From positions 704,001 to 768,000 of the forward strand of contig CM000435.1 of the NCBI GenBank assembly GCA_000165345.1: DNA of 64,000 nucleotides, read 5' to 3'. A program made the position numbers and the translations under genes. Positions 7,117 to 10,100 of the stretch are shown here, one piece after another. Position 1 is the first letter of the stretch, and the number at the start of each line of letters is the position of its first letter. Below the pieces are notes generated by a model, which saw only the letters and a list, made by a program, of their open reading frames with translations, did no database searches and was not told the DNA's origin.

Positions 7117-10100
7117 ATGATAAACCCGATAACGCTACTAAATGCAAACATAAAAACTCCAAAGATTTTTAATAAGAAAAAAAAAGATAATGAGAATCAA
7201 GATAATGATGATGCTGAAGTAATTGTCAAAAAGACTCCAGATGATACCGATGAGGTAAGTATATAATTAATATTGTTTTCCATTATTATTCTTTTAGAAT
7301 GCAGTAGAGCTTGAAAGACCTCAATTTATCGATGAACTAGCAAATGTTCCAGTATTGAGTATGGACGATTTTATAAGCAAATATGTTGAAGAAGATGAAG
7401 CTATTGATAATGAATATGAATCTGTTGACGAACTTGATGCGATAAATTTTGAAGAAAATAATTCTGGTACTAATGGTAAGCTTCCAAGAATTTATATTAT
7501 TAGAACTCATTAAGTATTTAGACAAGTCATATATGCTTCAAAGGAGATGGAAAGTCGTAATATGGGACTTAAGCATTGAAAACTTATGTGATGAAGAGGC
7601 CAGCGTATTTATAGAAATAGATTTTGGAACATCGAGAGAGGAATTTCGCGTGCAACTTGAGTCAAAAGAATATATCTTGTCAAATGGAGAACTCAAACAT
7701 CGCCTGAGAACACCAATTGTGCATAGCCTCCTTAAAGATAAGCCTCAAAAAATAAAGTTTCATCCTTCTTTTGAATATAGAGGCTCTTATTATGATATTG
7801 AAAAAGAAAAACTCAAGCTTTCTGCCTGGAAATATCATAATTTTAGACTTAATACATTAGACGCGATGTTTGAAATCAAATTAAATACATGCGCAAATTC
7901 TGATCTTCAGCATCAGTGCTACTTGATGAGATTAGGTGATGGTCATACATTGGAAAAGGTTTATAGGATTTGTTTCAATCTATACTTCCAGGAAATTTAT
8001 GATTTTCAGCTTTCACTTGATCGATTTGAAATAAAGGAACTATTAACTCATGATAATATTATGGACAGAGTTAGTTCTCTAAAAAAAAAGGCCGTTGAAA
8101 AAGTTCCTTTTAATAATAATTCTTTCTTTGAAATAGATACTGAAATTAATTCAAATGAATTCTTGTCAGAATTTACCATTATTGAAAATACTGAATTTGA
8201 AAGTATCAATAAAAGTAGATATCGAAATTTATTGGGAAATAACAATAGGATAGGTAATGATCCAATTAAAAAAATATTTCAATATATTTCCTTTAATTAT
8301 AGTGAAAATGAAATGGGGAATGTATTAACCGAAAAATCTAAAGCTAATAGTAAAACATTGAATTTAGAAAGTTCGATAAATGAACAAGAGAATAAAGGGA
8401 AAATCGAATCCAATATAGTTGATCAAAGAAAAGGAATCTGGGATACTTTCTTGGGGTTTATTGGCCTGCTAAAGGAAGATCAAAAAGATAATATTCAAAA
8501 ACTTGATAGTTTATTAATAGAAGCAGAACTAGACCAAGCAAAACTCCATCCTGCTAATTGTAGCCCAAGATTAAAAATTAACATAACCTGGCCTACAACG
8601 TTGAAAAATTATACTATGTATAGCAACATACAAAAAGGTACCAATTGGCCTGTATGGGAAAACCTAGGATCAATTTATTTGCGAGGAACAATAGCAGATT
8701 TGGAAAATTGTTTTATTGATATAGATGTCATTGATAATAATAAAGACAAAACAATAAACTCACAGGCAAGAACTCATATCCCACTAAAAGGATTGATCGA
8801 GACTAATACAGTTATTGAATCAAATCTATCTGAACCTCTGTGGTTAGCAGAAAAAGTAAAAAAAACTGAAGAGCGTAGAATACTTGCTACTTGGGAATTT
8901 GGGATGATTACAGGAAATATTTCATTCAAGAATTATCCTTCACAACGGCAGAAAGGGAATTTTATTCATTTTGTAAAAGATAGATTATATTTAATGATTA
9001 AAATAATCAAAGTTGACAATATTATAACTTTTGAGAATTTAGAAAATACTCTAGTTAACATTTCAATCACTCATCAAGGGTTAACCTCAAAGTCTAATTC
9101 CAATATTTGTAGCAGTTTAAAAGACAGACCAATAGATGATTACATTATTTTACCATTGCAGTTACCACCAATATCAGAACTTTACTTTTTTCACTTAGAG
9201 AGTTTGGGAGAGATTTATATAGACTTATGGGTTACTTCAGATAATCAAAGCGGTTCTAAAATGCAACATGCAGGATTTACTTCGTTCACAATTTGGGACA
9301 CAATATTTTCTATCAAAGGCGCAAAAAGACCAACATCAGAAAGATATTATAGTTCTTATACATCTGGCTCAAATGAAAAGTTAAAGGTAAGAGTATTGGA
9401 ACAAGAAGTCCCGTTAAAATTCCTTTTCCCAACAGATAGAGTTGCTAATATTTCCTTTGAAGCATTTATTACTCCAGATATATTATCTATAAAACCAAAG
9501 GGTAATCAAGCAATTTGTTCAAAAGATACTGGAATATCTGAAAAAATTGACATTTTTTTAAGAAGTCGAGTAGAACTTTCACCGAGTCAAGCACCAAAAG
9601 TATATCAAAACGAAAAAGCTTCTATTGAGGTAACATTAATTAGTAAACTAGGCACAGGAATAATTGGGAGATTCTTTATATTTTCTTCTTTTAATCATAG
9701 AGGAAATGAGCTTATGCTTACACAATTCGTTAGACCAATTCCTGCGCCAAGTGGTATTATTACTCCAAGAGCAATATTTCATTTTGTAAGATGCATCCCC
9801 TTCATTAATACAAGTTTTAGAGAACCTCCAAAAAGAACAAGAGACAAGTTTAACAATGAAACGTCTAAAAATGATTCTTTAAAAAGGGGTAGTCAAGAAT
9901 CCAAAAGCGCATATTCGTTTGATAAGTCACATTATTGGTTCACCCCAGACTTTACACTACTGAGTAATGGGGGTGGAGTTATTGACCATTGCCTTTTGCA
10001 TGTTTCCTTATTGTTAAAGCAAAAAATTCAAGCTTTCGTATGTATTGGCACAGTTGCTGGGGGGCATTTTCATTCTTGGGTAATGTCATGGCACTTCAGC

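Follow-up and report, generated by a model that had tools for sequence, protein, structure and literature searches.

A long open reading frame on Cryptosporidium parvum chromosome 7 is very probably the third exon of a CEP76-domain gene with introns of 43 and 46 nucleotides

The stretch of DNA analysed here (64,000 nucleotides (nt), contig CM000435.1, positions 704,001 to 768,000; hereafter the window) is from chromosome 7 of Cryptosporidium parvum, and 10 of its complete open reading frames (ORFs) have exact counterparts among the C. parvum proteins of Iowa II, IOWA-ATCC, and other strains. The genome is compact (about 30% GC content), with few and short introns. A mechanically called ORF of 1662 amino acids (aa) opens in the window at a TTG at position 7449, and a previous sequence-only reading had proposed that this ORF begins in the middle of a gene whose true start is the ATG at 7117. 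We can state with high confidence that the gene at 7117-12437 is composed of three exons, encodes a protein of 1743 aa, contains introns of 43 and 46 nt, and corresponds to CPATCC_0008850 (QOY40622.1), the long ORF being its third exon. The structure is identical to the current annotation and is conserved across the genus. It was already known, since it is found in the current annotations of C. parvum, C. hominis, and C. meleagridis.

In the C. parvum assembly GCA_035232765.1, the annotated gene found on the importin-anchored contig spans window positions 7117-12437 (window coordinate = 16474 minus locus coordinate) and encodes a product of 1743 residues. The span of 5321 nt minus a coding sequence of 5232 nt, stop codon included, leaves 89 nt of intron, and the introns therefore measure 43 and 46 nt, not 43 and 28 nt. 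The proteins predicted from both intron combinations were built, then compared with deposited proteins by exact sequence. The protein obtained with the 43- and 46-nt introns was identical to QOY40622.1, KAL5367619.1, WKS78991.1, and WRK33477.1, from four C. parvum assemblies, whereas the 1749-aa protein obtained with a 28-nt second intron had no exact match in the protein collection searched. The QOY40622.1-type model shares all 1743 residues and its span with the structure supported here, and nothing differs; compared with the model of the sequence-only reading, it uses an acceptor ending at 7521 rather than at 7503 and has six residues fewer. The cluster of the 1743-aa protein at 90%, which has 10 members, also includes models of 1743 aa from C. 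hominis and 1742 aa from C. meleagridis, and orthologous three-exon models are deposited for both species (KAL3127096.1 and OLQ17970.1 for C. hominis, and POM82732.1 for C. meleagridis). The introns of the CPATCC annotation are stated to be 100% supported by RNA sequencing (RNA-seq) (PMC8744675), and an earlier RNA-seq re-annotation had raised the proportion of intron-containing genes from 4.3% to 10.8% (PMC4637869).

Orthologous loci of C. meleagridis, chipmunk genotype I, C. ubiquitum, C. ryanae, C. muris, and the species represented by SRR31860986 (hereafter the SRR31860986 species) were fetched via synteny with the importin gene. Gene models were compared in six species, namely C. parvum, C. 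meleagridis, chipmunk genotype I, C. ubiquitum, the SRR31860986 species, and C. ryanae, and the C. muris locus was read directly. C. felis was left out of the comparison, its locus (L010) stopping 125 nt upstream of importin. By tblastn, the peptides of exons 1, 2, and 3 were found in this order in five other species, and in C. muris only those of exons 2 and 3 were detected.

The beginning of the gene agrees with the sequence-only reading. An in-frame TAA is located at 7078, and the next ATG, the first after this stop, is the one at 7117, to which the annotated gene start maps. Exon 1 (7117..7254; this and all following features are on the + strand unless stated otherwise) contains 46 codons (MINPITLLNANIKTP...DDTDE) and ends with GAG|GTAAGT at 7254/7255. 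Its MINP start is kept in all six modelled species. Intron 1 (7255..7297) is 43 nt long, in phase 0 (GTAAGT...TCTTTTAG), and its acceptor CTTTTAG|AAT ends at 7297; these coordinates had been correctly read. The intron has the features of a canonical U2-type GT-AG intron, with the species consensus GTAAGT as donor and, at its other end, an AG that follows a T-rich tract. Read-through of the exon 1 frame is blocked by a TAA at 7264, and the removal of 43 nt joins it to the frame of exon 2. An intron is found at the same position and in the same phase in the orthologues, with a length of 43 nt in C. meleagridis and chipmunk genotype I, 41 nt in C. ubiquitum, 44 nt in the SRR31860986 species, and 45 nt in C. 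ryanae. In C. muris, an intron of about 73 nt (manual count) is also located at this place and in this phase, preceded by an exon 1 (MFSSLNFLKPGFK...). The predicted tryptic peptide across the first junction is TPDDTDENAVELER.

Exon 2 (7298..7475; 178 nt) encodes an acidic segment (NAVELERPQFIDELANVPVLSMDDFISKYVEEDE...NNSGTN) and ends with the G of a GAC (Asp) codon that intron 2 divides. An acidic and split N-terminus had been announced, and the first 105 aa indeed contain 28 D+E versus 10 K+R, with an isoelectric point of 4.05; these residues precede the conserved RRW and the (E/K)(F/I)(D/K)(F/I)G block. The frame of exon 2 remains open to 7510, passing G|GTAAGC at 7475/7476, and meets a stop at 7511. 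The sequence-only reading had correctly located this donor, and had recognised the need to remove a number of nucleotides equal to 1 mod 3 and the restoration of the frame by the 28-nt pair at 7476-7503. It had, however, taken this pair as the only reasonable one, and this did not hold: the same donor (ATG|GTAAGC) with the acceptor GTATTTAG|ACA (AG at 7520-7521) removes 46 nt, which is also 1 mod 3 and also restores the frame. Thus, the phase-1 intron and its donor at 7476 stand, and its length of 28 nt is replaced by 46 nt on the basis of the annotation, the exact protein match, and conservation. Intron 2 (7476..7521, GTAAGC...GTATTTAG), which like intron 1 has canonical U2-type GT-AG boundaries, falls within the 43-50 nt that had been given as the size range of the other introns, a range that we also find. 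Its removal leads to ...SGTN-D-KSYMLQRRW, and exon 3 (7522..12437, stop included) starts with (D)KSYMLQRRWKV and encodes the bulk of the CEP76-domain protein. The two possible lengths predict different junction peptides, YVEEDEAIDNEYESVDELDAINFEENNSGTNDK for 46 nt and ...NNSGTNELIK for 28 nt.

All GT..AG pairs were enumerated around intron 2, and every AG downstream of the conserved donor was tabulated in each species. In the six modelled species, intron 2 measures 44-48 nt and interrupts the codon in phase 1; its donor is GTAAG, preceded in every case by a G. An intron of 66 nt (manual count) is located at this place, in the same phase, in C. muris. The distal acceptor is open in all six, where it always gives ...D-KS(Y/M)-LQRRWKV, and is the sole acceptor in frame in every one of them. 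The proximal AG (7502..7503), the acceptor of the 28-nt pair, keeps the frame in C. parvum and C. meleagridis alone. Its use would lead to a frameshift after 29 nt in chipmunk genotype I, to an in-frame TAG after 25 nt in C. ubiquitum, and to a stop after 16 nt in C. ryanae, and it is absent in the SRR31860986 species. Other pairs that are in frame in C. parvum, made with donors such as GTACTA at 7467 and acceptors giving at least 79 nt, were rejected because they involve weak donors or the loss of the conserved KSYMLQRRWK.

The comparison of exons 1 and 2 between species indicates that they evolve as coding sequence, beyond what is expected by chance. The differences from C. parvum at codon positions 1, 2, and 3 are 4, 3, and 12 in C. 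meleagridis, 9, 7, and 33 in chipmunk genotype I, 18, 12, and 39 in C. ubiquitum, 18, 14, and 42 in the SRR31860986 species, and 41, 28, and 58 in C. ryanae. The p values of the chi-square test for this third-position bias range over the five species from 0.02 down to 2.7e-6, the latter in chipmunk genotype I. Indels within the two exons are of 0, 3, 6, or 12 nt. In intron 2, and in intron 1 outside C. ryanae, one to two alignment gap columns are observed, and the length differences between species are not multiples of 3.

More distant sequences were also informative on the N-terminal region. A HMMER search against 1.84 billion representatives retrieved 173 relatives (E <= 0.001), and the alignments to distant apicomplexan homologues open inside exon 2 (query residues 67-92). 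In these homologues, the invariant RRW is preceded by a stretch of about 113-117 residues or more, in agreement with the 1743-aa model, where it occupies residues 113-115, and F71, encoded by exon 2, is invariant in all seven aligned sequences, distant apicomplexan homologues included. The motif PQFIDELA-VP---MD-F is kept in the six modelled species and occurs in C. muris as well. We also observed that the exon 2 motif PQFIDELANVPV(L/M)SMDDFISKYV, which may be a conserved short linear motif, is nearly invariant in intestinal Cryptosporidium and recognisable in C. muris. Of the four distant apicomplexan homologues in the alignment, three have LLWS-QY-YDEFI(D/N)SL opposite it.

Several other explanations of the frame change were weighed. 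According to the sequence-only reading, intron 2 could be a near-minimal spliceosomal intron of 28 nt, giving a protein of 1749 aa with six extra residues (ELIKYL), or else the assembly could contain a frameshift; neither is needed with an intron of 46 nt. A 28-nt intron has GT-AG ends and restores the frame in C. parvum and C. meleagridis, but it fails to restore the conserved frame in four of the six modelled species, and its product is in no annotation of the collection. Moreover, ELIKYL is not encodable in chipmunk genotype I, C. ubiquitum, and the SRR31860986 species, because the long frame opens there only 2-7 codons before the conserved Asp. A length of 28 nt is also well under those of the annotated introns of the window (43, 46, and 50 nt) and the species median of 61 nt, and a similar internal AG, out of frame, lies unused by the annotation within the 50-nt intron of the gamma-tubulin-complex gene described below. 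We therefore consider a 28-nt second intron highly improbable. An assembly frameshift, in which exon 2 would be contiguous with the long ORF and a sequencing indel would lie within 7470-7510, could account for the frame change and for that alone. Over the region 7050-7600, however, the NCBI assembly and an independent Logan assembly agree at every base, and the same break, with its GTAAG donor and read-through stops, is found in six other species from separate projects, where the introns are 44-66 nt long and some of them are 0 mod 3 yet contain stops. The probability of such an error appears close to negligible.

It was also conceivable that the gene consists of a single exon, starting at ATG 7473 or ATG 7533, the upstream ORFs being part of a 5' untranslated region or promoter. 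The 2004 Iowa II model (EAK90314.1/XP_628471.1, 'membrane protein conserved in eukaryotes', 1654 aa) has the same long exon and the same stop as the three-exon gene, but starts at ATG 7473 and is without exons 1 and 2, its first 16 residues being translated intron. Single-exon, 5'-truncated models of this kind persist for C. tyzzeri (TRY50721.1, 1654 aa) and some records of C. hominis (CUV07290.1/XP_666771.1, 1654 aa), and are also deposited for chipmunk genotype I (L008, 1635 aa) and C. ryanae (L011, 1604 aa); the DNA of the last two contains the two upstream exons and the two introns, all of them intact. Prokaryote-style gene calls on Logan contigs gave a protein of 1634 aa starting at ATG 7533 and, separately, two small ORFs corresponding to exons 1 and 2. 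The start codons themselves argue against these models. ATG 7473 (7473..7475), which overlaps the intron 2 donor (AAT G|GT), is ACG in C. meleagridis. In four other species (chipmunk genotype I, C. ubiquitum, C. ryanae, and the SRR31860986 species), the frame of the long ORF has no ATG before the conserved DKSY, and in the last of these the Met at 7533 is replaced by Leu. In addition, the upstream exons show coding evolution, the exon 2 motif aligns with distant homologues, and the predicted N-terminus of the old model (MVSFQEFILLELIKYL) results from translating intron 2 out of frame. A single-exon gene thus has very little probability. With regard to this N-terminus, we observed that MVSFQEFILLELIKYL is hydrophobic and corresponds to 7473-7521 read in the frame of the long ORF; the label 'membrane protein' may have been inherited from the old model, which carried it.

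Four points weigh against the three-exon gene with a 46-nt second intron. Several deposited annotations (C. tyzzeri, older C. hominis, chipmunk genotype I, and C. ryanae) remain single-exon, and the RNA-seq support quoted above is a general statement in the paper (PMC8744675), not a gene-specific record. The third point concerns the branch site. In four species, a CTCAT, CTGAT, or TTCAT sequence precedes the distal AG by about 12-15 nt. In three of them (C. parvum, chipmunk genotype I, and C. ubiquitum) this sequence comes after the proximal AG, and the fourth, the SRR31860986 species, has no proximal AG. The sequence may be a branch site, but C. parvum has no clear branch-point consensus (PMC2483917), and for this reason a branch-point model is uninformative here. 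Finally, splicing at the proximal AG would preserve the frame in C. parvum and C. meleagridis, and its minor use is therefore compatible with the sequence alone. There is a slim chance that it acts as a minor alternative 3' splice site in the group formed by C. parvum, C. hominis, and C. meleagridis, adding the six residues ELIKYL. If so, the functional intron removed, of only 28 nt, would be unusually short by apicomplexan standards. Given the comparison between species, the AG at 7502-7503 is most likely unused.

With the three-exon gene as the preferred explanation, translation would start from the ATG at 7117 after removal by the spliceosome of 43 nt (7255-7297) in phase 0 and of 46 nt (7476-7521) in phase 1, the AG inside intron 2 being skipped, and the resulting mRNA would encode a 1743-aa protein with CEP76-type domains. 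The sequence is thereby explained without unusual splicing or assembly defect, and there is little gain beyond bookkeeping. Users of the truncated models, on the other hand, are deprived of the conserved exon 2 motif (PQFIDELANVPV-SMDDFISKYV), which is invisible in them.

Introns of this size are not exceptional in the species. A set of 213 C. parvum introns has a median length of 61 nt and a mean of 82 nt, and GTAAGT opens 84% of C. parvum introns (PMC2483917). The third annotated intron of the window, of 50 nt, belongs to the gamma-tubulin-complex gene (14755-18410), whose annotated product of 1201 aa fits a start at ATG 14755. Its exon 1 (14755-14829) is followed by the intron at 14830-14879 (GTAAGC...CATTTTAG). 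We observed that this gene is likewise 5'-truncated as a mechanical ORF (14976-18410), and that its intron contains an internal AG (14856-14857) at 28 nt from the GTAAGC donor. Scans of the window for tRNA genes and Rfam families found nothing. Three further loci, L003, L004, and L005 (Logan contigs ERR14760746, DRR729255, and DRR729221), each carry an importin gene with the same protein product as in C. parvum, but window 7050-7600 has no exact match in any of them. The contigs of L004 and L005 appear to end before this region, and L003 spans it and must differ there by at least one base.

The importin-beta gene itself (EAK90313.1/QOY40621.1; 3825-6473, - strand) is the divergent neighbour of the three-exon gene, at a distance of 643 nt. 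The latter is probably cgd7_3040, as judged from the agreement of the identities between C. parvum and C. hominis with a published divergence table (PMC4637869, supplement): we obtained 0.979-0.980 versus 0.978 published for this gene, and 0.993 in both cases for importin. A literature search for the presumed identifier cgd7_3040 found no paper.

Pfam searches detected two domains encoded by exon 3, PF24656 (CEP76 peptidase-like; 67.6 bits, cut-off 27.8) and PF24652 (CEP76_C; 36.5 bits, cut-off 22.5), and no domain in a scan of the first 705 residues, whereas animal CEP76 has an N-terminal C2 domain of the CEP76 type. As cgd5_780 has been named as the C. parvum orthologue of CEP76 (PMC4348508), the predicted product described here is, by its domain content, a second CEP76-domain protein of C. 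parvum. Both domains, above the Pfam gathering scores, are common to this protein and the CEP76 family, from which it differs by its much greater length (1743 aa), its acidic N-terminus, and its low-complexity C-terminal part. Several of the best-scoring HMMER relatives are also long, with 1500-2900 aa.

Ultra-short spliceosomal introns are found in other lineages, with about 20-33 nt in Paramecium, 18-21 nt in the nucleomorph of Bigelowiella natans, and 15-16 nt in Stentor. The 28-nt candidate would share with them its size class and its GT-AG ends. The evidence above, in contrast, puts the second intron of the three-exon gene at 46 nt, which is an ordinary length for Cryptosporidium.

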